Assembly: GCA_032249235.1 (NCBI GenBank)
Contig: JAVVGF010000008.1
Coordinates: 1-29,506, forward strand
Length of the DNA stretch: 29,506 bases
Direction: 5' to 3'
Origin: Thermoproteota archaeon
Lineage (GTDB): Archaea > Thermoproteota > Thermoprotei > Gearchaeales > Gearchaeaceae
Shown in pieces: positions 47 to 15,306 of this stretch. Position numbers and translations under genes: made by a program. Positions within the stretch are counted from its first letter, which is position 1, and each line of letters begins with the position of its first letter. The notes beneath the pieces were generated by a model. That model did no database searches, was not told the DNA's origin, and saw nothing but the letters and a program-made list of their open reading frames with translations.

Positions 47-289
47 CTAGTTCTCAATCAGTTTGTAATTATGAAATCCGAATGTGCTTTTAGATGCTTC
101 TTCTAATGCTCTTTTTATTTCCTCTTTACTTTTAGGATGTTTTAAAATTACTTTGGCTATTTTTTTATTGTAGTCTGGAATAATTTCTTGAATTTCTGAA
201 ATAGCTGATATGTATTTCGATATTATTTTAACGCACAGATTACAAGTAATGTTTTCTACGACGAATTCTTTTAATTCAACTTTTTCCAT
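47..289 (-). CDS. Heavy-metal-associated (HMA) domain protein, CopZ/MerP-like metallochaperone
   Basis: 80 aa with FVVENITCNLCVKII, matching the HMA (M/I)xCxxC motif. No signal peptide visible. Overlaps the upstream membrane-protein gene by 14 nt. Confidence 0.85.
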   Translation of the reverse strand: MEKVELKEFVVENITCNLCVKIISKYISAISEIQEIIPDYNKKIAKVILKHPKSKEEIKRALEEASKSTFGFHNYKLIEN

Positions 290-848
290 TTCTAGAAAGG
301 AGCCTTCTAAGTGTTATGTAGTTAGTTAATAAAAGAACACCAATGGATATTAAGGAAATTTGAAAGTTGTATTGTATTAAAAAGGATATGATAGGTATAA
401 TTGCAGTTCCTACAACGCTTATTAGAGCAAGAATTAATCCTCCACCACAACATGCAACTGTTCCAAGTATAGCAGGTATTGCAGCAAGCCATGAACTGCT
501 TGCCAAAGTTACCTTCTCCTTTTTATTTACTTGACAGCATGCATATTTTCTGCTATAAAGTAACAATAGAATGTTTAAAGTGATCAAAAAACCAGTAGCT
601 ATCATCGCTATTAAGTTTGAATAATAAATAACAATGAGCCAATGATTAGATAGTGCTATTGCAATTCCTAAATTGCTCATTGATACATACGGAAAATAAG
701 AAATCACACGGCTAAGATCGTAGTTGACATAAGATATCATTCCTGTTGAAAACATGTAGAATATTACATATGCAGAGATGATCGTAATAAATTCTTTCTT
801 TCTCTCTATTAATACATCTTTGATTAATTGAAAGGCTTCGTTTCTCAC
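276..848 (-). CDS. Membrane protein with two Cys-Cys pairs, putative MerT-like Hg/metal transporter
   Basis: About 4-5 hydrophobic segments. Contains YACCQ and AILGTVACCGGGLILAL, which resembles the MerT TM1 'AILASACC' pattern. GTG start; lies next to the HMA gene and merA. Confidence 0.6.
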   Translation of the reverse strand: MRNEAFQLIKDVLIERKKEFITIISAYVIFYMFSTGMISYVNYDLSRVISYFPYVSMSNLGIAIALSNHWLIVIYYSNLIAMIATGFLITLNILLLLYSRKYACCQVNKKEKVTLASSSWLAAIPAILGTVACCGGGLILALISVVGTAIIPIISFLIQYNFQISLISIGVLLLTNYITLRRLLSRNGKS

Positions 849-872
849 AAAATTTTATTTAGTTTTCATCTA

Positions 873-878
873 TTTAAA
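873..878 (-). promoter_or_regulatory. Putative archaeal TATA box for the transporter-HMA operon
   Basis: TTTAAA about 25 nt upstream of the GTG at 848, the spacing expected for a leaderless transcript. Confidence 0.5.
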
Positions 879-883
879 TTATA

Positions 884-902
884 TACTATCAAAAATTATA
901 GT
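884..902. promoter_or_regulatory. Putative operator (ACTAT-N8-ATAGT)
   Basis: TACTATCAAAAATTATAGT inverted repeat just upstream of the TATA box. Shares the 10-mer TACTATCAAA with 1369-1378. Confidence 0.5.
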
Positions 903-978
903 TGCTATATTATAAAAATGCATGAAACTTTATATAATTTATAAAAAATTAAATAATTTAGTTATTTATCAATAATTA

Positions 979-1368
979 TCATGTTTGAAATTTTATATTC
1001 ACTGGCTTACCTTTTTCGATGAGGCTACATGAACAATGCGCTAAAACAGCTCCTTCATAATTGAAAGCCCATTGAATCAATGGAATTATTGCTTTTCTCA
1101 ATTCTTTTCCTTTTTCTGTGAGGCTGTATTCAACTTTCGGAGGAATTGTATTATAAGTTTTTCTTTTTACAAGTCCTTCTTTAGTTAATTCTTTTAATAA
1201 GTCTGATAGCATTTTAGGCGTTATTGGTCTTAATTCCCTCATCAATTCATTGAATCTCAGACTTCCATGATTACCTAGTTCGTTAATTATCAACAAAGAC
1301 CATTTTTTTGCTATTAAATCTATTATACCTTCAATAGGACAAAGGCAAATAACGTTATCCGCTTCCAT
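979..1368 (-). CDS. HxlR/DUF24-family winged-helix transcriptional regulator, Cys-rich
   Basis: CPIEGIIDLIAKKW...LRFNEL...ITPKMLSDLLKEL...GLVKRK...PPKVEYSLTEKG is the HxlR signature. ATG at 1368 is preferred over TTG at 1377 on TATA spacing. CLC near the N-terminus and CSC near the C-terminus. Confidence 0.9.
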   Translation of the reverse strand: MEADNVICLCPIEGIIDLIAKKWSLLIINELGNHGSLRFNELMRELRPITPKMLSDLLKELTKEGLVKRKTYNTIPPKVEYSLTEKGKELRKAIIPLIQWAFNYEGAVLAHCSCSLIEKGKPVNIKFQT

Positions 1369-1375
1369 TACTATC

Positions 1376-1396
1376 AAACTATAAACTTTATAGTTT
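1376..1396. promoter_or_regulatory. Perfect 10-bp inverted repeat, putative operator in the divergent regulator/merA promoter
   Basis: AAACTATAAA-C-TTTATAGTTT, overlapping the TTTAAA box at 1394-1399. Confidence 0.6.
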
Positions 1397-1399
1397 AAA
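1394..1399. promoter_or_regulatory. Putative bidirectional TATA box
   Basis: Palindromic TTTAAA about 24 nt from the merA GTG (1423) and about 26 nt from the regulator ATG (1368). Confidence 0.5.
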
Positions 1400-1422
1400 T
1401 ACTTTATTTTTTATAACATTAT

Positions 1423-2832
1423 GTGGCTAAGAGACATGATTTAATTATTATAGGAAATGGAGCAGCTTCGTTTGCTGCAGCAATTAAGGCTACAGAACTA
1501 AGCGAAGGTACAGCTAGCATATTAATGGTAGGTATAGGACCTATAGGAGGAACTTGTGTTAATGTAGGTTGCATTCCTTCAAAGTATTTGCTTGAAATTT
1601 CTCATTCTTATTTCTATTCAAATAAGAAAAAATATCAAGGTTTAGTATTGGAAAAAGCAAAATTAGACTTCAAAGAAGTAATGGAGGGTTTAAGAAATTT
1701 TGTCTTAAGTTTAAGGAAAACAAAATATGAAGATGTTCTAAAAGCATATCCTAACATCGAATATATTGAAGGAAAAGCAAAATTTATTTCGAATAATGAA
1801 ATAGAAGTTAATGGAAAAAATTTCAGCGCTGAAAATATAATAATCGCTACTGGTTCAAGGCCTAGCATACCTAATATAGAAGGTTTAAATAAAGTTAACT
1901 TCTTTACTAGCAACAATATTTGGGAAATAAATAACTTGCCTTCTAGGATAGCTATAATAGGAGGAGGAGCAATAGGATTAGAAATAGGCCAAGCTTTTCA
2001 ACATTTTGGATCACAAGTTTTCGTCATAGAAGCGATGGATAGAATAGTTCCTCAAGCTGAACCTGAACTTTCAAAATATTTAATGAATATTCTTGAAGAA
2101 GAAGGAATGAAATTTTATTTAAAAGCTCGAATTTCAAGAATTGAACAGAAGTCGGGTTCTAAAATTTTGGAAGTATTGACTGCCAAAGGAAAAGAATTTT
2201 TAGAAGTTGATGAAATCTTAGTTGCAACAGGAAGAAATCCAAATACAGAGGAACTAAGATTAGATAAGGCTAATGTCGTTGCAGATAAAAGAGGTTTTAT
2301 CATAACAAATGAAATGATGCAAACAAGCAATCCTAAAATATATGCTGCAGGTGATTGTGTTTCTAAGAGATTAATGCTCGAAACATTAGCAGCTAGAGAA
2401 GGAGTGATTGCTGCGAATAACATTTTTGGTATAAAATCAACGATTGACTATAATCATGTCCCATGGGTTGTTTTCACGAATCCACAACTTGCATCAGTAG
2501 GATATTTGGAGCATGAGTTTGTAAACAAATTTGGAAGTTGTGTATGCAACATTGTAAGATTCAAAGATGTACCTAAAGCTTTAATTATGAACGAAGAAGG
2601 ATTAATAAAAATAGTTGCTGATCCTAATAGCGGTAAAATTGTCGGGCTTCATGTTTTAGGTTATATGGCTTCAGAATATATAATTGAAGGAGCCTTGGCC
2701 ATAAAATTAGGATTGACAATAAATGATATCATCGATACTGTTCATGCATTTCCAACACTTTCAGAGAGCATAAAGTTGGCAGCTCAATCATTTTTAAGGA
2801 ATATTAGCATGATGAGTTGCTGTGTAGAATAA
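1423..2832 (+). CDS. merA: Mercuric reductase (archaeal type, no NmerA domain)
   Basis: FAD-binding IIGNGAASFAAA; redox-active GGTCVNVGCIPSK; NAD(P)H-binding GGGAIGLE; HAFPTLSES; C-terminal vicinal Cys pair MSCCVE, diagnostic of MerA. Confidence 0.93.
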   Translation: MAKRHDLIIIGNGAASFAAAIKATELSEGTASILMVGIGPIGGTCVNVGCIPSKYLLEISHSYFYSNKKKYQGLVLEKAKLDFKEVMEGLRNFVLSLRKTKYEDVLKAYPNIEYIEGKAKFISNNEIEVNGKNFSAENIIIATGSRPSIPNIEGLNKVNFFTSNNIWEINNLPSRIAIIGGGAIGLEIGQAFQHFGSQVFVIEAMDRIVPQAEPELSKYLMNILEEEGMKFYLKARISRIEQKSGSKILEVLTAKGKEFLEVDEILVATGRNPNTEELRLDKANVVADKRGFIITNEMMQTSNPKIYAAGDCVSKRLMLETLAAREGVIAANNIFGIKSTIDYNHVPWVVFTNPQLASVGYLEHEFVNKFGSCVCNIVRFKDVPKALIMNEEGLIKIVADPNSGKIVGLHVLGYMASEYIIEGALAIKLGLTINDIIDTVHAFPTLSESIKLAAQSFLRNISMMSCCVE

Positions 2833-2833
2833 T

Positions 2834-3958
2834 TCATTTAGAGAAAAGTAATATGAGAGGTATAGCTATGCTTATAATTGTGGCGAATAATAAGAAAGCT
2901 GTTATATCTACAAAAGATAGCAGAATACCTGCGACTATCCCTCCTAAAGTTCTAAATAATCCAATTAATAAGTTCATGTTTGAAACATATGTAGCTCTAT
3001 CGAATTTCTCGCTTATCAATGCTGAATGTGAGAATAATGGTATCCAAATGAATAACCAAAATGGCATTGCGTAAAATATAGCAAATATAATTAAGTCTGG
3101 ATAAATTAGCAACGTTGCATAATAAGCCGGGTAATATATTGAACCTATCAATAACACTCTTTTTGTGCCCAATCTATCTACGAGATTACCTATATAGGGT
3201 GAAGTTATCATGCCTGCTAATGTTGAGAGTGCATTAACTAATCCCCAATCTAACACGCTACCCTTCAGTACAGTTACATAATATACAGGCACTATAGAAT
3301 ATACAAAAGCAGGTGCAAACACAAGCATAGAGTATATCAAAGTAATTTTCGATGTAGCTTTAAATAATTTAATTATATTAATATCATGATAATTTGGATT
3401 ATAAATTCGTTCTTCTTTAAAAAATAAAAAAATTATTGATATTAAAATACCTAATAGACTTATTGAAATTGATGTAACTCTGAAACTTAAGTAATAAATT
3501 ATAAATCCAAATAATATGCTTCCTATAAAATAACCTAAGTTTATATAAAGAAAAACTTTACCTACCGAGCTTCCCATTTGTTTACTTCTTTCTGTTTCAT
3601 AAGAAACAAACAATGGCTGACCGATCTGCAATATTGCAGAAGCAAGTATTAGAATCAAAATAGTGATTATTCTATTGTCTTCAAAGAAAGTAGAAAGTAA
3701 AAGCATCGTTGATCCAATCAACAAAGAAGTTATTGCATATCTCAATCTATAGCCTGTTTTATCTGAAATCGGTGCAATGAATATTGGAGTTATTCCCATT
3801 GAAAAAGCAGAAGCAGCATATATCAAAGCTGTTGCCAAAATCCCATTTAAGCTGTATGCATATATTCCTATGAATATCAATGGATAAGTTATGAGTAAAC
3901 CATATATTACATAAAGTATGATAGGAACGAATTTACTTAGTGATTTTTGTTCCTGCAT
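2834..3958 (-). CDS. Major facilitator superfamily transporter
   Basis: About 12 hydrophobic segments. MFS motif-A-like sequences APISDKTGYR and GNLVDRLGTKR. Confidence 0.85.
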   Translation of the reverse strand: MQEQKSLSKFVPIILYVIYGLLITYPLIFIGIYAYSLNGILATALIYAASAFSMGITPIFIAPISDKTGYRLRYAITSLLIGSTMLLLSTFFEDNRIITILILILASAILQIGQPLFVSYETERSKQMGSSVGKVFLYINLGYFIGSILFGFIIYYLSFRVTSISISLLGILISIIFLFFKEERIYNPNYHDINIIKLFKATSKITLIYSMLVFAPAFVYSIVPVYYVTVLKGSVLDWGLVNALSTLAGMITSPYIGNLVDRLGTKRVLLIGSIYYPAYYATLLIYPDLIIFAIFYAMPFWLFIWIPLFSHSALISEKFDRATYVSNMNLLIGLFRTLGGIVAGILLSFVDITAFLLFATIISIAIPLILLFSK

Positions 3959-5866: not shown

Positions 5867-8344
5867 GTGTCATCGGAATTAAAAATTCCTGAAAAAGTAT
5901 ATCAAAAATATAGTGATCTCTTCGGAGATAAAAAGATAAATGAAAGAATTGTTAGTGTTGAAAATTTAATTGAAGAGCTTGTAAAGGAATTCGGCGAAGA
6001 GATAAGGAGAATAATTAACAAGAGAAGAAAATGGTTAGAATCTAAGGAACCTGTAGCAGTTAAGGGTTCTTTCCCTGCTTTTGATGAATTGTTTATGGAT
6101 GCTGACGGAAATAAAAGAACTTTCAGAGAAATCATTCAAGGCATGATGGATAATTTCCTTGGGATACAATCTAAGCTAGCATGGAGATTAAATGCAAATG
6201 TGCCAATACCAAATGATGTGCATCCTCTTAAAAATCCAGGATTAGAAATCACTGGACCATGGTATCCTTTAAGCAGAGCTTATCATCAAATAAATGCAGA
6301 TGTAGCATCAGCCATGGAAGATGAAGAAGATGCCTCACCTGCATGGTATGTTCCATATGCTTCAGGCAAAGAAATCGCAGATGTATGGGAAGCTAGAAAA
6401 AACGTAAAACATTTTCTTTCTGGTAAAGCTCCAAGTTATTATCATGAGAAAGGAAAAATCTATAGCTTAAACAAACCTAGAGAGAAATGGCCTGCCATTT
6501 TTCACAGACTTCCTGGTTTACATGTTCTTGATTTTGATATAACATTTGGTGGCAAGCCTGTACCAGCTATAATTGTATCTGCTGTTATCTATACTTTGAA
6601 TAACTATGAGAGTCTGAAAAGTGCAGGTTCTAGTGTATATTTTTATTTGCCAAAAATACAAACACCTGATGAAGCTCTATTAGTGGAGAAAATACTTAGA
6701 AAGATAGAATCTAAGTTAGGACTTAAAATTGGCACGTTGAAAATTGCTCTTCTTTATGAGGAAGTAAATGCAGGAAGATTCTTTCCAGTCATATTATGGA
6801 TTTTCAGAGAAAGATTGATCAAGTCGAATAACGGTAGATGGGATTATTTGGGTAGTCTAATTGAAATGTGGCTTCAAGAAAAAGTCCTTCCCGATCCTCA
6901 AAACATTACTATGACTTCACCAAACATGATGGCTTATCAAAAGTACAATGCGCTAATGATGTTATTAGCCGGTGCAAAGAATGGAGAAGCAGATGCAGCT
7001 CCAGTAGGAGGCATGGCTGCAGTGATGCTATATCAGCAAACTGATCCTTTTGGAAGATATAAATATAATGCAAAGGCATTAAGGAGCATAAAGCTGGATA
7101 AGCTAAGAGAAAGATTAATAGGGCTAATATTTTTTACAGAGGAAAAGATTGCAGATAAAATTACTCTTAAGGATATAATTAGCGGAAAAGTAAAAGGCAA
7201 GCTCTATGACATGTTTAGACAGAGCTGGGTTGCGACTAAGGAAGAAGCCTATGTAGATGCAGGAAATAAACCTTTGAGGGCAAGTTTAGAAGAACTACAT
7301 GAAATGATAACTGCGCCTGTTCAGTATATTGATGTTGAAGGAACAAAACTACCTAGCGTAGAGAGTGGATTAACAACCGAAGAAATTGCGCTTTTCCAAA
7401 AATTAGGTCTCATTAATGAGAAGGGTGAAATCACTCCTTGGCTCATAACAAAGGATATGATCGACACGCCGGAAAAATTATTCTTCAACAAAGAATTGTG
7501 GGGAGGAAAAGATCTCTGGTATGCATTGTATGATATTCCTGAAGGGGAAATTACACCTGAGCACGTTCAGCATGCCTTTTATATGGCTGCAAACTATGGT
7601 TTCCAATTACTTAATGGTAACTTGGCTGCAGCAATAGATGATTATGAACTAAAGCAGAGATTTATGAATGATCTAGCAACATATAGAATATTTACTTCTT
7701 GGCTTTGGAGTGTAATAAATAAAGATGCTAAAATAACTAAGGAAGGATATATTAAAGGTCCTAAATTAACTAAAGACGGCGTAATCCCTGCTGAAGAAGT
7801 ATTTAAGGTTAGCAAAGGGACAAAAGTAAAAGATATTTTTGAGAATTTATGGAAGTTGCACTTTGAGTGGACGTATGATTTTTACAGAGAGCAAGATATA
7901 AGGGTAGCTAAAAGATTAATAGAGCGTTTTGGAAAAGTAAAAGATGATCATCTCATAAAAGAAGTATATAAGATCGTATCAAAAGCTTATAGTTCAGGAC
8001 CTTTTAGAGAATTGTCTTCTAAAGAGGCGTCTCAGGAACTAGCGAAAATATTCAACATTAGTCCAATTGAGATAGAAAAAGAGCTTATTGATTTAGCTCC
8101 TAGATTCGATAGAGCAATGGCACCAGTTATTATGGAAATATTGATGAAGCAATTGCTATATCCAAAATACATAATGAATGGTGGAAGAATACTCTTCATC
8201 CTTTCTCCCTTAGATCCAGAGAATAGATTGAAGGTAATGGATAGTTTATTTTCTTTTAGAGAAATTGTAGAAGATAAAGTGAGGAGAGGTGAATTGGATA
8301 AATCTATTTTAGAATTATATGATTACATCTACGATTATTACTAA
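5867..8344 (+). CDS. aceB: Malate synthase, long Sulfolobus-type
   Basis: LEITGP, YFYLPKIQ, NNGRWDYLGS, GGMAA, FMNDLATYRI motifs; 825 aa; adjacent to isocitrate lyase. Confidence 0.88.
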   Translation: MSSELKIPEKVYQKYSDLFGDKKINERIVSVENLIEELVKEFGEEIRRIINKRRKWLESKEPVAVKGSFPAFDELFMDADGNKRTFREIIQGMMDNFLGIQSKLAWRLNANVPIPNDVHPLKNPGLEITGPWYPLSRAYHQINADVASAMEDEEDASPAWYVPYASGKEIADVWEARKNVKHFLSGKAPSYYHEKGKIYSLNKPREKWPAIFHRLPGLHVLDFDITFGGKPVPAIIVSAVIYTLNNYESLKSAGSSVYFYLPKIQTPDEALLVEKILRKIESKLGLKIGTLKIALLYEEVNAGRFFPVILWIFRERLIKSNNGRWDYLGSLIEMWLQEKVLPDPQNITMTSPNMMAYQKYNALMMLLAGAKNGEADAAPVGGMAAVMLYQQTDPFGRYKYNAKALRSIKLDKLRERLIGLIFFTEEKIADKITLKDIISGKVKGKLYDMFRQSWVATKEEAYVDAGNKPLRASLEELHEMITAPVQYIDVEGTKLPSVESGLTTEEIALFQKLGLINEKGEITPWLITKDMIDTPEKLFFNKELWGGKDLWYALYDIPEGEITPEHVQHAFYMAANYGFQLLNGNLAAAIDDYELKQRFMNDLATYRIFTSWLWSVINKDAKITKEGYIKGPKLTKDGVIPAEEVFKVSKGTKVKDIFENLWKLHFEWTYDFYREQDIRVAKRLIERFGKVKDDHLIKEVYKIVSKAYSSGPFRELSSKEASQELAKIFNISPIEIEKELIDLAPRFDRAMAPVIMEILMKQLLYPKYIMNGGRILFILSPLDPENRLKVMDSLFSFREIVEDKVRRGELDKSILELYDYIYDYY

Positions 8345-8643
8345 GGATCAAATACTAATATTTTGAAACATTATACTCAAATTATTATTGAGAATGTTAA
8401 GCTTGGAAAGACGATATTAGTTTAAGACGTCTATGAACTCTAATTTTCATATTCATGATAAATAAAGCTTAAGTTAAGAGATTTTAGTCATACTTTGTCT
8501 ACTATAGATTATAAATGTTTTAGAGCATGTTTGTTATTATGCACATTTTTGCTATTAAGGAATGCTGACGTTAACTAATATTATTTTTAAACAAGTTCTG
8601 TTAAAATATTGTTCACATTAAAGATTTATATAACTATTAAAGT

Positions 8644-9963
8644 ATGATACTAATAAAGCCTAAAATGAATGTAAGAGAGATATGGGGTGAAGAAGCAAAA
8701 AAACTAGAACAGGAATGGGTAGAAGATCCTAGATGGAAAGGTATAAAAAGGAATTATAAAGCTATAGATGTTGTTAAGTTAAGAGGATCGATTAGAATTG
8801 AATATACAATAGCTAAATTAACTTCGCAGAAGCTTTGGAATCTATTGAATACCGAATCTTATTTAGCGACGTTTGGTGCATTGACAGGTTCACAAGCAGT
8901 AGAGATGGCTAAAGCAGGGCTGAAAGCTATCTATGTAAGCGGTTGGCAAGTAGCTGCAGATAATAACCTAGCTAATCAGACTTATCCTGATTTAAGCTTA
9001 TATCCATCAAATAGCGTCCCTAATTTGGTAAGGAGATTGAACAATGCCTTATTAAGGGCAGATCAGATATCTTGGATTGAAGGTAAACATGATATTGATT
9101 ATCTATTACCAATTATTGCAGATTGCGAAGCAGGTTTTGGAGGCCCTATACATGCTTTTGAATTGACAAAAGCTCTAATAGAAGCAGGTGCAGCAGGTGT
9201 TCACTTTGAGGATCAATTAGCATCGGAGAAAAAATGCGGTCATTTAGGAGGGAAGGTTCTACTTCCTATAAGTGCCTTTATAAGAGTATTGAACGCTGCA
9301 AGATTGGCTTCCGATGTTTTAGGAGTACCTACAGTAATAATTGCTAGGACAGACGCTACGAATGCGAAATATTTATCAAATGATATAGATGAAAGAGATA
9401 ATGAATTCTTAACAGGTAGAAGAACCATAGAAGGCTATTATGAAATTAAAGGAAGTATTGAATATGCTATTACTAGAGCGCTTGCTTACGCACCATATGC
9501 AGATTTATTATGGTTTGAAACATCTAAGCCAGATTTGGAAGAGGCAAAACAATTTGCAGAAGCTATTCGTGCTCATTATCCAGGAAAACTATTAGCATAT
9601 AATCTATCGCCATCATTTAACTGGAAGAAATTCCTAGACGATTCAAAGATTAAAAAATTCATGGATCAGTTAGGAGAAATGGGATACAAGTTCCAATTCA
9701 TAACGTTAGCTGGTTGGCACTTGATAAACTATTACACATTCAAGCTAGCAAAGGCATACAAGGCTGAAGGGATTTCAGCATATGTAAGATTACAAGAATT
9801 AGAATTCCAAGCTCAATCTGAAGGCTATACTGCGGTGAGTCATCAAAAAGAAGTTGGAACAGAATATTTCGATCTTGTATTAGCAGTGGTGTCTGGAGGA
9901 GTTGCATCGACGACTGCAATGAAGGAATCTACAGAAGCTGAACAATTTCTGGAAGCGAAGTAA
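8644..9963 (+). CDS. aceA: Isocitrate lyase
   Basis: KKCGHLGGK catalytic motif, [49 protein letters not shown]. The true start may be the ATG at 8665. Confidence 0.96.
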
Positions 9964-12998: not shown

Positions 12999-13925
12999 AT
13001 GATTGCGATATTAACAGGTGGGACTGGAGGAAGAAGACTCTTTGAGGGATTCTTACATTCGTATGTTCCAAAAGAAATAAATGCTATTGTAAACGTAGCA
13101 GACGATATAGAAATATATGGTTTGCACATAAGTCCTGATTTGGATTCAATTCTTTATGCAGCTACAGGCATGATAGATGATGAAAGAGGATGGGGAATTA
13201 AGAATGATACTTTTAATTTTCATTCAATGATAACTAAAATAATTCCTACTTATAGCTGGTTTAATCTGGGAGATAAAGACTTAGCAATCCATGTTGTTAG
13301 AACAAATTTACTAAAGAGCGGAATGAAATTATGTGAAGTTACGAAATTCTTAGCGAGCAAATTCAATGTTGATTGCAATATAATCCCCATGAGCGACGAT
13401 AGGGTTACAACCTATATTTTTGACGGTGTTGTTAAAAGACATTTCCAAGAATTTTGGGTTTTATATCGTGCGGAAATGCCTATAAAAGCTGTTATCTTTG
13501 ATAACATTGAAGAAGCTAAACCTTGCGATAAAGCTATCGATGCAATTATATCTTCAAAGCTTGTAATTATAGGTCCGAGCAATCCTATTACAAGTATAAA
13601 TCCTATTTTAAGTCTTAAAGGCTTTAGAAATATTTTAATAGATAGCGATGCTTTAAAAATTGCTGTTAGTCCTATTCTAGGAAATGCTCCATTTAGCGGC
13701 CCTGCTGGAAAGTTAATGCAAAGCCTAGGAATAGAAGTTAGCTCATATGGTGTTGCTACGATTTATAAAGACTTGCTGGATTACATCATTATTGATGAAA
13801 GCGATACGAATGAAGAGAGGATAAAAGAATTAGGTATAGAAGTTTTGAAAACTAACATATCTTTGAAGACAATTGACGATAGAATTAGATTAGCGAAGTT
13901 TATTCTTGAAAAATTCATGAATTGA
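12999..13925 (+). CDS. cofD: 2-phospho-L-lactate transferase (F420 biosynthesis)
   Basis: LTGGTGG, IVNVADD, ISPDLDS, FNLGDKDLAIH, HFQEFWV, IGPSNPITSINPI, FSGPA. Confidence 0.92.
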   Translation: MIAILTGGTGGRRLFEGFLHSYVPKEINAIVNVADDIEIYGLHISPDLDSILYAATGMIDDERGWGIKNDTFNFHSMITKIIPTYSWFNLGDKDLAIHVVRTNLLKSGMKLCEVTKFLASKFNVDCNIIPMSDDRVTTYIFDGVVKRHFQEFWVLYRAEMPIKAVIFDNIEEAKPCDKAIDAIISSKLVIIGPSNPITSINPILSLKGFRNILIDSDALKIAVSPILGNAPFSGPAGKLMQSLGIEVSSYGVATIYKDLLDYIIIDESDTNEERIKELGIEVLKTNISLKTIDDRIRLAKFILEKFMN

Positions 13926-14570
13926 ATGAAAGACTGCATAATTATACCTTTAAAAAGAATAGATTTAGCTAAAAGCAGACTTAGTAATTATTTGAATCCT
14001 ATTCAAAGAAAAGAATTTAGCTTATCGATGCTAAGTGATGTTCTAGAAGCTTGTATTAGTTCAAGTTTTTATAAAATTTTCCTCGTTACTCAAGAAAAAA
14101 TTGATTTAATTCATGAAGAGAAAATTGAACAGATAATAGATAATAGCGAATTAAATTTAGCTTTAAAAAATGCCATAGACAAAGTAAAAAATCTAGGTTA
14201 TGAATGTTATCTCATCATTCCTTCTGATATTCCTCTCATTGAAAAAGAAGACCTAGATACCTTGAAAAAATTAATTAATGAGTACGATTTGATAATCTCA
14301 CCATCATTCGATTCAGGAACAAATGCTCTTTTCATGAAAAAAGATAAAGAGATTGAGCTTGAATATGGTGAAGGAAGAAATAGCTTTTTAAGGCATTTAG
14401 AGCATGCTCAACGCAGAAATCTAAATGTTTACATTTATTCTAATGAAAGAATTAGCTTAGATATAGATGACTATGCAAGAATGAAATACCTAGCTAGTCT
14501 CAATATAAATAAGAAAAGCGTTTTATACATCAAGAAAATTTATGAAGAAAATCGAAATATTCGGAATTGA
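13926..14570 (+). CDS. cofC: 2-phospho-L-lactate/PEP guanylyltransferase (F420 biosynthesis)
   Basis: IPLK...AKSRLS, MLSDVL, PSDIPLI, GTNAL, SFLRH, DIDD. Lies between cofD and cofE. Confidence 0.88.
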   Translation: MKDCIIIPLKRIDLAKSRLSNYLNPIQRKEFSLSMLSDVLEACISSSFYKIFLVTQEKIDLIHEEKIEQIIDNSELNLALKNAIDKVKNLGYECYLIIPSDIPLIEKEDLDTLKKLINEYDLIISPSFDSGTNALFMKKDKEIELEYGEGRNSFLRHLEHAQRRNLNVYIYSNERISLDIDDYARMKYLASLNINKKSVLYIKKIYEENRNIRN

Positions 14571-15306
14571 AGGAATTCCCGATATAAAACCTGGTGACGA
14601 TTTAGTTGAGATAATATTAGAAGCAATAAGAAAAAACGGTTTAGAAATTGAAAACGATGACATTTTAGTCATTTCTCAAAAGATAGTTTCTAAAAGTGAA
14701 AATAGGATCGTAAATTTAAATTCAGTCAAACCAAGCGAAGAAGCCATAAAAATAGCTAAAATTGCAGATAAAGATCCAAGATTGGTTGAACTAATACTTC
14801 GTGAATCTAAAAGAATAGTGAAGTTAGCTAAAGGACATATAATAGTAGAGACTAAGCATGGTATTATTTGTGCAAATGCAGGCATAGACAAATCTAATGT
14901 TGGCAATGTAGAAAATATTGAGAATGTTGTTTTGCTACCTGAAGATCCTGATTCTTCAGCTAAAAGAATAAGATTTGAGATTGAAAAAAGAACAGGGAAA
15001 AAAGTAGGCGTGTTAATTTCAGATACTTATGGCAGAATGTTAAGAGAAGGTCAAATAAATTATGCAATAGGAGCAAGCGGTATTAGAATTTTCAGAGATT
15101 ACAGAAATAAAAAAGATCGTTATGGATATATTTTGCAAGTAAAGAACATTGCAGAAGCTGAAGAAATTGCTTGTGCTGCAGAATTAGTTATGGGTCAAGC
15201 TGATGAAGGAATTCCTGTTGCATTAATTAGAGGCTTAAAGTGTGAAGAATCACCTTTAGATGCGAAAGTTTTAAACATGCCTGAAGATAAATGGCTCTTT
15301 AAATAA
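14542..15306 (+). CDS. cofE: Coenzyme F420-0:L-glutamate ligase
   Basis: IPDIKPGDDL, KIVSKSE, ICANAGIDKSN, LPEDPD, ISDTYGR, ELVMGQADEGIPVALIRG. Confidence 0.93.
   Translation: MKKIEIFGIEGIPDIKPGDDLVEIILEAIRKNGLEIENDDILVISQKIVSKSENRIVNLNSVKPSEEAIKIAKIADKDPRLVELILRESKRIVKLAKGHIIVETKHGIICANAGIDKSNVGNVENIENVVLLPEDPDSSAKRIRFEIEKRTGKKVGVLISDTYGRMLREGQINYAIGASGIRIFRDYRNKKDRYGYILQVKNIAEAEEIACAAELVMGQADEGIPVALIRGLKCEESPLDAKVLNMPEDKWLFK

Follow-up and report, generated by a model that had tools for sequence, protein, structure and literature searches.

In bacterial mer operons of the Tn501/Tn21 type, MerR, MerT and MerP are encoded together with a mercuric reductase, MerA, that carries an NmerA domain. 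The Sulfolobus-type mer locus comprises an ArsR-type MerR, the TRASH-domain protein MerH and MerA (PMC3466566). In the portions of the surveys consulted, archaeal mer loci are portrayed as hardly more than merA, and mer transporters as absent from Archaea with one exception (PMC3466566; PMC8261052; bioRxiv 10.1101/2020.02.03.933291); for Thermoplasma-related scaffolds, a MerP-like protein has been reported alongside an archaeal MerA (bioRxiv 10.1101/2020.02.03.933291, as far as consulted). Here, we characterized a cluster of four genes at the left end of a 29,506-nt stretch of DNA from a Thermoproteota archaeon of the Gearchaeaceae (GenBank assembly GCA_032249235.1, contig JAVVGF010000008.1, positions 1-29,506), the whole of which is called the window. 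The genes encode a small HMA protein, a membrane protein, an HxlR-family regulator and a MerA. With little more than even confidence, we read them as one compact regulon that would detoxify Hg(II), a thiol-loving metal, by means of an HxlR-type sensor, a MerT-like unclassified carrier, a free HMA protein in the role of NmerA and a core-only MerA. Both the link between HxlR and mercury and the membrane family are undescribed in the literature searched.

Like the Tn501/Tn21 operons, the window encodes a MerA with a redox-active CxxxxC and, near its C-terminus, CC; a membrane protein whose vicinal CC lies within the membrane and which has further cysteines in the cytoplasm; an HMA module with CxxC, likewise cytoplasmic; and, at a divergent promoter, a regulator containing cysteines. 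In contrast, its regulator is of the HxlR family rather than MerR, and its HMA module is a free cytoplasmic protein, neither a periplasmic MerP nor a fused NmerA. With the Sulfolobus-type locus, whose gene order we took from the consulted part of PMC3466566 and from loci analyzed here, it shares a core-only archaeal MerA with Phe at the position of Bacillus residue 605. Unlike that locus, it has neither ArsR nor TRASH proteins, its partner protein is of the HMA rather than the thioredoxin-like kind, and its membrane protein is at best a remote relative.

The four genes and their paired cysteines

The window is from contig C8 of a 91%-complete genome of 1.43 Mb in 18 contigs (G000; G-labels denote sampled genomes, of which G001-G003 belong to the same genus, and L-labels denote loci), and the cluster lies where the left end of the window coincides with the contig end. 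The hxlR gene (979-1377, minus strand; 132 aa) is divergent from merA (1423-2832, plus strand) across a spacer of 54 bp, counted from the likelier hxlR start, an ATG at 1368 where orthologues align. Beyond hxlR follow the membrane gene (276-848, minus strand; 190 aa, GTG start) and then the HMA gene (47-289, minus strand; 80 aa), whose start the membrane gene overlaps by 14 nt. A first-pass annotation of the window had described these four genes, with paired cysteines in each, a MerA lacking NmerA, a regulator of the HxlR rather than the MerR or ArsR type, and a cytoplasmic HMA protein, and all of this was borne out. The four genes are present as open reading frames (ORFs), three of them with a Pfam or NCBIfam family. 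The cysteine pairs are C16xxC19 in the HMA protein, C104-C105 and C133-C134 in the membrane protein, C11xC13 and C115xC117 in HxlR, and C45xxxxC50 and C466-C467 in MerA. In a crude set of 1516 ORFs from the genome, a C-x(0-2)-C motif occurs in 14.8% and CC in 2.0%, and only 5 of 1513 runs of four consecutive ORFs are positive throughout. Pairwise dN/dS of 0.09-0.31 across the four genes (0.17-0.18 for the HMA gene) denotes purifying selection, indicating that all four are real, constrained genes.

The merA gene starts with GTG and encodes 469 residues ending in MMSCCVE. Its product passes the MerA model TIGR02053 (552.5 bits; cut-off 454.45), the second-best model being lipoamide dehydrogenase at 388.6 bits, under its own cut-off of 408.8. 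Since the protein begins directly with the FAD-binding motif, it is without an NmerA domain. Four signatures are listed as essential for MerA in the part of the source consulted: in the numbering of Bacillus RC607, Cys 207/212, Cys 628/629, Tyr 264 and, at position 605, Phe in archaeal or Tyr in bacterial enzymes (PMC3466566). All four are found at exact spacing in the window protein. The best solved relatives of the protein, the MerA structures 5x1y and 4ywo, align with it at C45/C50 (GGTCVNVGC) and at C466/C467 (MMSCCVE); Y102 lies 52 residues past C50; and F443 (in HAFPT) lies 24 residues before C467. The residue aligned to F443, the archaeal variant, is F in M. sedula MerA and Y in 5x1y. 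By family and signature residues the protein is a genuine core-only mercuric reductase, and mercuric reductase activity would be expected of it.

The HMA protein matches PF00403 (29.5 bits; cut-off 24.8), and its T-C16-N-L-C19 motif is kept in all three orthologues. It falls under the cut-offs of the CopZ, CopP and MerTP models, its best sub-threshold matches being copper chaperones, and it does not match MerP (TIGR02052) at E ≤ 0.01. It has no signal peptide and no hydrophobic N-terminal or membrane segment (highest 19-residue hydropathy 1.11), and its HMA domain is the only one found in the 91%-complete genome. We propose that it carries Hg(II) between the membrane protein and MerA. A natural fusion in another sampled genome (G342) bears on this proposal. 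There, an ArsR gene lies opposite merA, and merA is followed by a gene for a 262-aa protein consisting of the membrane domain of the window family (C102 in the loop, C126-C127 in SCCGGGL) and a C-terminal HMA domain with the motif GVTCGSC. The HMA domain reaches 24.6 bits with PF00403, 0.2 below the cut-off, and is further supported by tblastn with the window HMA protein (E 2.5e-7) and by a CopZ-type NCBIfam model (about 2e-6). Judged from its arrangement, the fusion ties the membrane and HMA genes of the window to each other and would place the HMA domain in the cytoplasm. MerT-HMA fusions (NF033556, MerTP; NF045683, MerT/CopZ fusion-like) likewise pair a CC membrane module with an HMA domain. 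In the window, by contrast, each part has a gene of its own, the two genes overlapping, and the membrane part falls under the threshold of every MerT model.

The HxlR regulator and its candidate operators

The regulator, which we propose as sensor and repressor of the cluster, matches PF01638 over residues 21-107 (E 4.5e-27; 94.2 bits, cut-off 20.8), and neither a MerR nor an ArsR (HTH_5) domain is among its Pfam matches at E ≤ 0.01. Its cysteines stand as C11-L-C13-P near the N-terminus and H-C115-S-C117 near the C-terminus, and both motifs are kept in the five closest orthologues aligned. Known HxlR (DUF24) sensors are thiol-based redox switches. Among them, YodB, HypR and QsrR are repressors with a Cys before Pro near the N-terminus and with palindromic operators at their own and their target promoters. 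The window protein shares with these the fold family, the N-terminal Cys before Pro and, as candidates, palindromes at its own and target promoters, but differs in two extra cysteine positions (CxC, HCxC) and in its regular linkage to merA. The literature search turned up no paper connecting HxlR with mercury; the supplementary tables of mer surveys lay outside that search and might list such neighbors.

The linkage holds well beyond the window. hxlR and merA are divergent neighbors in all four genomes of the genus (G000-G003), and among 12 MerA loci fetched, HxlR was adjacent at these four and not at the other eight. In a phylum sample of 401 genomes, which also served for the membrane-family and MerA searches, 23 genomes had a match to the HxlR protein at E ≤ 1e-25, and nine carried the four-cysteine signature (CxC...HCxC): G000, G001, G050, G064, G198, G233, G166, G273 and, as a broken copy, G225. 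In seven of the nine, distributed over four families of two classes, the gene lies within 3 kb of merA or a merA remnant. The distance is 54 bp in the window, 73 bp in G001, 237 bp in G050, 221 bp in G064, 1.2 kb in G233 and 2.7 kb in G198, there within a same-strand island; the broken copy in G225 stands beside merA-like fragments. G198 belongs to another class, and its HxlR is 63.6% identical to that of the window, as against 63-71% for same-genus orthologues, while its MerA is only 52% identical; this closeness suggests either strong constraint or lateral movement of the regulator. The two other genomes with the signature, G166 and G273, have no MerA, and their four-cysteine HxlR precedes YnfA/UPF0060 membrane proteins. 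A second HxlR in the window genome is paired with a DoxX-like gene.

HxlR relatives under about 58% identity differ in their C-termini and neighbors and occur in genomes without MerA. A more distant orthologue (G006, contig C14, L069; 46% identity) stands with an HMA protein and a CopA-like ATPase, and in the 47%-complete genome G445 (contig C2, L068) an orthologue lies opposite an HMA gene that is followed by a merA frame-shifted into three frames (identity for G006 and G445 44-46%). Others, in G414 and G011, are paired with small thioredoxin-like genes, and to judge from these contexts the more distant orthologues point to metal or thiol stress generally. It could accordingly be asked whether the cluster is a general thiol-stress regulon, in which HxlR senses oxidants or electrophiles through a disulfide, as in YodB, HypR and QsrR, and drives a disulfide-reductase-like flavoprotein together with thiol buffers, mercury being one of many triggers. 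The redox chemistry of the known HxlR sensors, the thioredoxin-like genes beside the distant orthologues and the best NCBIfam matches of the regulator, the redox regulators RrpB and RrpA (both under cut-off), would fit such a role. The enzyme, on the other hand, has every MerA-specific signature (C-terminal CC, Y102/F443), and these are missing from plain disulfide reductases; likewise, the HCxC motif is confined to the merA-linked clade and its two YnfA-linked members. We regard a general thiol-stress regulon as improbable.

The promoters of the cluster offer a second line of evidence for a dedicated regulon. The hxlR-merA spacer holds a perfect 10-1-10 palindrome, AAACTATAAA-C-TTTATAGTTT (1376-1396), as a candidate operator. 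It is abutted by a TATA-like box, TTTAAATA (1394-1401, plus strand), at -29 to -22 from the merA GTG, and the palindromic core of this box, TTTAAA, also lies at -31 to -26 from the hxlR ATG. An identical box (871-878, minus strand) stands at -30 to -23 from the membrane-gene GTG as the candidate promoter of a predicted leaderless membrane-HMA transcript, and is kept in two related metagenome loci (L014 and L015, described below). Just upstream of it is another candidate HxlR operator, ACTAT-N8-ATAGT (885-902). Both sites adjoin a TTTAAATA box lying 22 nt before a GTG start, and the merA and membrane-gene promoters have one common operator and TATA design. In the whole 1.43-Mb genome there are eight ACTAT-N6-9-ATAGT sites, against about 27 expected from base composition, and two of the eight are in the cluster.

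Similar sites recur at related loci. Both palindromes are kept in L015 (the membrane-gene site at 1643); L014, where hxlR has been lost, retains a degenerate GCTAT...ATAGT at the membrane gene. G001, like L015, has a related palindrome at the position of the window's hxlR-merA palindrome, and in G002 and G003 an RCTAT-N7-ATAGY lies between the TATA box and the merA start. The mer island of G198 contains three RCTAT-N8-ATAGT sites and one N9 site in its gene spacers, one of the N8 sites, an ACTAT-N8-ATAGT, lying 39 bp upstream of its membrane-family gene (L070 at 10519); the background of the relaxed N7-8 motif in the window genome is 0.017 sites per kb. No ACTAT...ATAGT site was found beside the HxlR-merA pairs of G050 and G064. 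Given these predicted sites and the synteny, HxlR probably binds ACTAT-N7/8-ATAGT palindromes, and the boxes would serve as promoters of leaderless transcripts. In our proposed mechanism, HxlR would sit on the palindromes at merA/hxlR and at the membrane-HMA unit and would probably be released when Hg(II) bridges its cysteines.

The membrane family and its neighborhoods

The membrane protein belongs to an unnamed family with about four helices and has no Pfam or NCBIfam match. Its close homologues are very rare: a word-indexed search of 5.8 billion proteins gave four clusters, a search of the ESM Atlas gave unnamed clusters only, a search of 41 relatives matched the window's genome alone, and none of the 93 pattern matches in a contig search with the close-homologue alignment was a relative. 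When 1.84 billion representatives were scanned in full by HMMER with a four-sequence profile, 13 matched at E ≤ 0.001, all of 162-209 aa. C133-C134 (in FACCGGGL) is invariant in all 16 family members, and P125 and an LN motif are almost invariant. In the basic loop that precedes the CC stretch, 14 of the 16 have at least one Cys, nine have at least two and two have none. Two CC pairs had been noted in the first-pass annotation, and both are present in the window; the first, C104-C105, is not conserved, being absent from two of the three close homologues (P0003 and P0004) and from the L015 lineage.

C104-C105 lies in a K/R-rich loop before the third hydrophobic stretch, and C133-C134 lies inside that stretch, mid-way along its 37 residues. 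By charge counts, the inside portions are the N-terminus and the loop at 98-119, with 5 K/R each, and the tail, with 4. An AlphaFold2 model of mean pLDDT 70, falling below 50 around residues 106-157 (the CC region), predicts four helical stretches and an outside beta region, in agreement with the charge topology. When searched against the PDB with Foldseek, this model of mean pLDDT 70 gave no match at E ≤ 0.001, and in a wide VIA-align search its best Z of 7.8 was to generic helical bundles, under the level that counts for helical proteins. Prediction of a complex with the HMA protein scored 0.02 against a mark of 0.32.

The description of this protein as MerT-like, also from the first-pass annotation, holds for the in-membrane CC and the loop cysteines. 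It does not extend to membership of the Pfam family, as the window protein has no match to MerT (PF02411) at E ≤ 1. Whereas MerT has three helices with the CC in helix 1, the window protein has about four and an outside beta-hairpin region, with its CC in the third stretch and its cysteine loop before rather than after the CC helix. One of the 16 family members reaches PF02411 at E 0.032, and the G342 member reaches the MerT model NF010314 at E 0.03. Weak remote similarity was also seen to a genuine MerT-HMA fusion of G002, which the family profile matches at E 2.4e-5 and to which hhalign aligns the CC pairs (66.5% probability, E 5.4e-5); the weak signals align the CC hairpin of the family with MerT helices 1-2. 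All of these links to MerT are below conventional significance. MerC, MerF and MerE, as well as the DsbD/CcdA-type family, are absent from the Pfam matches of the 16 members at E ≤ 1.

The G002 fusion (192 aa; PF02411, 53.7 bits) is encoded on a 3.4-kb contig (L100, G002:C40:1-3368) together with a BFD-like [2Fe-2S] protein, an SBF/ACR3-like transporter and YnfA/UPF0060. This contig could be contamination, which is estimated at 2% for G002. The presence of the fusion in a genome without the window-type pair at hxlR-merA fits the replacement of one transporter type by the other. The occurrence of YnfA/UPF0060 both here and beside the four-cysteine HxlR of G166 and G273 hints at a metal or metalloid role for that protein.

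In the phylum sample, MerA was found in 56 of the 401 genomes, the membrane family in 70 and both in 15. Family and merA lie no more than 7 kb apart in 7 of these 15, which represent five genera and four families. The distance is within 0.6 kb in the window (with hxlR between), in G342 (same strand, ORFs overlapping by 8 nt) and in G141, G304 and G171 (divergent, 216-267 bp), and is 1.2 kb in G271 and 6.5 kb in G198. In G141 and G304, Lrp-TRASH, redoxin and family genes share one strand with merA opposite, and G171 has the same layout plus an HMA-like protein after merA. The island of G198 (L070, G198:C8:56000-69000), from another class, spans about 8.5 kb on one strand. It comprises, in order, the family gene, a redoxin, a 172-aa protein with two CxxC motifs, 371-aa and 130-aa proteins (weak DUF3106), the four-cysteine HxlR, a 64-aa CC peptide starting MFCC, a 532-aa membrane protein and MerA. 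In a quick tree of the family, the window clade is sister to a clade containing G198. The family as a whole is present in 43 of 56 genomes of the family-level group f12, in all 17 of f21 and in several of f37; in the f12 members, which are of about 275 aa, CPTC replaces CC.

A comparable arrangement was seen at Sulfolobus-type loci. In G039, G185 and G029 (L061, L062 and L067), a 167-174-aa membrane protein with PxxCC and a cysteine tail, and a membrane-anchored WCxxC redoxin, are encoded between an ArsR-type merR and merH(TRASH)-merA; the parts of the mer reviews consulted make no mention of these two genes. The same pair occurs in four further genomes on contigs without merA in view. Similarity of this membrane protein to the window family is weak (hhalign 49%, E 1.7e-4, CC aligned). 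ArsR-type neighbors of merA were found in G342, G039 and G029.

Copper contexts, decay and the place of the locus

Besides the weak link to MerT, the variable first cysteine pair and the regulators in MerA-free genomes described above, several observations on distribution and context count against a dedicated mercury regulon. The membrane family is missing from 41 of the 56 MerA genomes, and most of its members occur in genomes without MerA (of the 43 f12 genomes that carry it, only one has MerA). In eight of the 15 genomes with both, the two are unlinked, being on different contigs in G092, G225, G233, G260 and G325 and more than 190 kb apart in G050, G064 and G246. On the quick tree, the merA-linked label requires 5 changes against a shuffled mean of 6.7 (21 of 500 shuffles as low), so merA linkage is spread over several subclades rather than confined to one clade. 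Moreover, when contexts were read at 29 family loci with 1.5-kb flanks (longer fetches being made for merA-linked loci), a redoxin or SCO1 partner was found at seven. Membrane-anchored AhpC/TSA-redoxin genes follow the family gene co-directionally, overlapping or abutting it, in L018, L027, L028, L030, L031 and L034, and an SCO1/SenC gene precedes it in L040. A NosL-redoxin fusion with a multicopper oxidase occurs in L023, DUF411 in L019 and L024, and Lrp-TRASH regulators, of the copper-sensor kind, in L027, L028, L032 and L073.

In view of these contexts, the membrane-HMA unit may instead handle copper or act in a thiol-disulfide relay, having no more than a stress regulator in common with merA. 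What the family would then deliver to outside thioredoxin-like or Sco-type proteins is Cu(I) or, as CcdA/DsbD do, reducing power, and in the window its partner would have become a CopZ-like chaperone. CcdA and DsbD work with TlpA/ResA-type thioredoxins, and a similar pairing is seen in other lineages of the family, where the gene for a small membrane protein with cysteines accompanies one for a thioredoxin-fold CxxC protein anchored in the membrane; in contrast, the family has its vicinal CC in one helix region, and its loci are merA loci in at least five genera. The copper chaperones among the best sub-threshold models of the HMA protein agree with such a role, as do the CopA-like ATPase beside the G006 orthologue of HxlR and the persistence of the membrane gene where merA is broken (see below). 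The only P-type ATPase of the window's genome (C2:2808-4997; 729 aa) points the same way: it has a CPC motif and, instead of an HMA domain, a TRASH/YHS-like N-terminus (CGMYV...YYFCS). The genes at the start of contig C2 are those found past the HMA gene in L014; contig C2 is therefore probably contiguous with the window's left end, and the ATPase gene is probably a few kb from the cluster.

Against this, five redoxin-paired loci are themselves merA loci: L027, L028 and L031 (divergent, 216-267 bp), L018 (the same as L070; 6.5 kb, in the mer island) and L032 (the same as L072; 1.2 kb), the last of which has a split redoxin-like ORF pair and lies outside the seven counted. The comparable CC-membrane and redoxin pair of the Sulfolobus-type loci, too, sits between ArsR-type merR and merH-merA. 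A thioredoxin partner is missing from the window, where the HMA protein is a cytoplasmic one, and merA and the membrane unit have a common operator and TATA design. That the family is purely copper- or thiol-linked was rejected, as the merA positions place merA next door at several of these loci. The grouping of the membrane-HMA pair with copper systems, which the first-pass annotation had named as a finding that would speak against its proposal, was seen in part (SCO1, NosL with multicopper oxidase, DUF411 and TRASH). We consider a copper or thiol-relay function unlikely, though it is the main rival reading and carries more weight than general thiol stress.

Comparison with close relatives shows both an older origin and decay of the cluster. 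Close relatives of the membrane gene were found in only three metagenome loci. In L015 (1030-2494), the order of the hxlR, membrane and HMA genes is that of the window, and on the merA side only the first 33 merA codons remain before an unrelated retropepsin-like gene. L014 (4485-6802), with 88-89% DNA identity, has a 468-bp deletion corresponding to window positions 1170-1637, which takes most of hxlR (its 5' part), the spacer, both promoters and merA codons 1-71; the start codon of its HMA gene is ATA. L016 is a partial copy of the L014 region. These remnants indicate that the four-gene set was ancestral to the three lineages and is intact only in that of the window. merA is thus broken in both related contigs that cover the region, and since the membrane gene is intact in both, it has been retained without MerA. 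In G001, G002 and G003, hxlR-merA is kept and the membrane/HMA pair is missing at that locus. The restriction of the intact set to one lineage and the retention of the membrane gene without MerA count against the regulon. The co-conservation of all four genes in other genomes, as anticipated by the earlier proposal, was not found, the intact set being restricted to the window's species-level lineage. Its two halves fared better: the four-cysteine HxlR recurs by merA in four families of two classes, and the membrane family repeatedly adjoins merA (7 of 15 genomes). Similarly, the claim that the locus has a different parts list stands as to HxlR, the unnamed membrane family, the free HMA protein and the core-only MerA, and is weakened by the restricted occurrence of the full set and by the weak link to MerT.

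The same data could reflect chance juxtaposition or a decaying remnant, the membrane-HMA pair having been inserted by hxlR-merA in one lineage with no working link. The absence of the pair from hxlR-merA of the three same-genus genomes, the single match of the membrane protein among 41 relatives and the broken merA of L014 and L015 could be so explained. Such a history would leave unaccounted for the operator and TATA design common to the two promoters, the recurrence of family-merA and HxlR-merA adjacency in several families, the membrane-HMA fusion behind merA in G342 and the purifying selection on all four genes, and we give it hardly any credence.

An MFS transporter gene (window 2834-3958, minus strand) ends 1 bp past merA on the opposite strand and is found in the same place in G002, G003 and L014. 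Elsewhere, the window is made up of housekeeping genes, among them those for acetyl-CoA synthetase and an XPD-type helicase. The glyoxylate-shunt genes, for malate synthase and isocitrate lyase, are adjacent, and the F420-biosynthesis genes for CofD, CofC and F420 gamma-glutamyl ligase form one run (window 5867-9963 and 12999-15306).

Returning to the mercury regulon as the preferred reading, the membrane protein would move Hg(II) across the membrane on its in-membrane CC, like MerT and MerF. In the window's species, Hg(II) may then pass through the cytoplasmic loop pair C104-C105 to the cytoplasmic HMA protein, which would hand it to the C-terminal cysteines of MerA and so do the job of the missing NmerA as a separate protein. 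In other archaea, the membrane family would be paired instead with a membrane-anchored, thioredoxin-like CxxC protein in an outside, MerP-like role. The regulator and the membrane/carrier parts are found again by mercury genes of distantly related archaea and so probably represent the regulator and transporter thought to be absent from archaeal mercury resistance. A broader proposal, which we hold tentatively and with rather less than even confidence, is that the four-cysteine HxlR represents a third, undescribed class of Hg(II) sensor, after MerR and the ArsR-type archaeal MerR. The four-helix CC family would be the archaeal counterpart of MerT, possibly a very distant relative and the "missing" transporter, with interchangeable partners, either an HMA domain (free or fused) inside the cell or, on the outside, a thioredoxin-like protein anchored in the membrane. 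On this view, a cassette of regulator, operator and transporter would have been transferred between thermophiles related to Sulfolobus and archaea related to ammonia oxidizers. For archaeal mercury resistance, the locus and its relatives supply candidates for regulator, operator and transporter that are specific enough to be tested. They bear on the origin of mercury resistance in hot springs, and the regulator with its operator may offer a new thermostable, Hg-responsive switch for biosensors.

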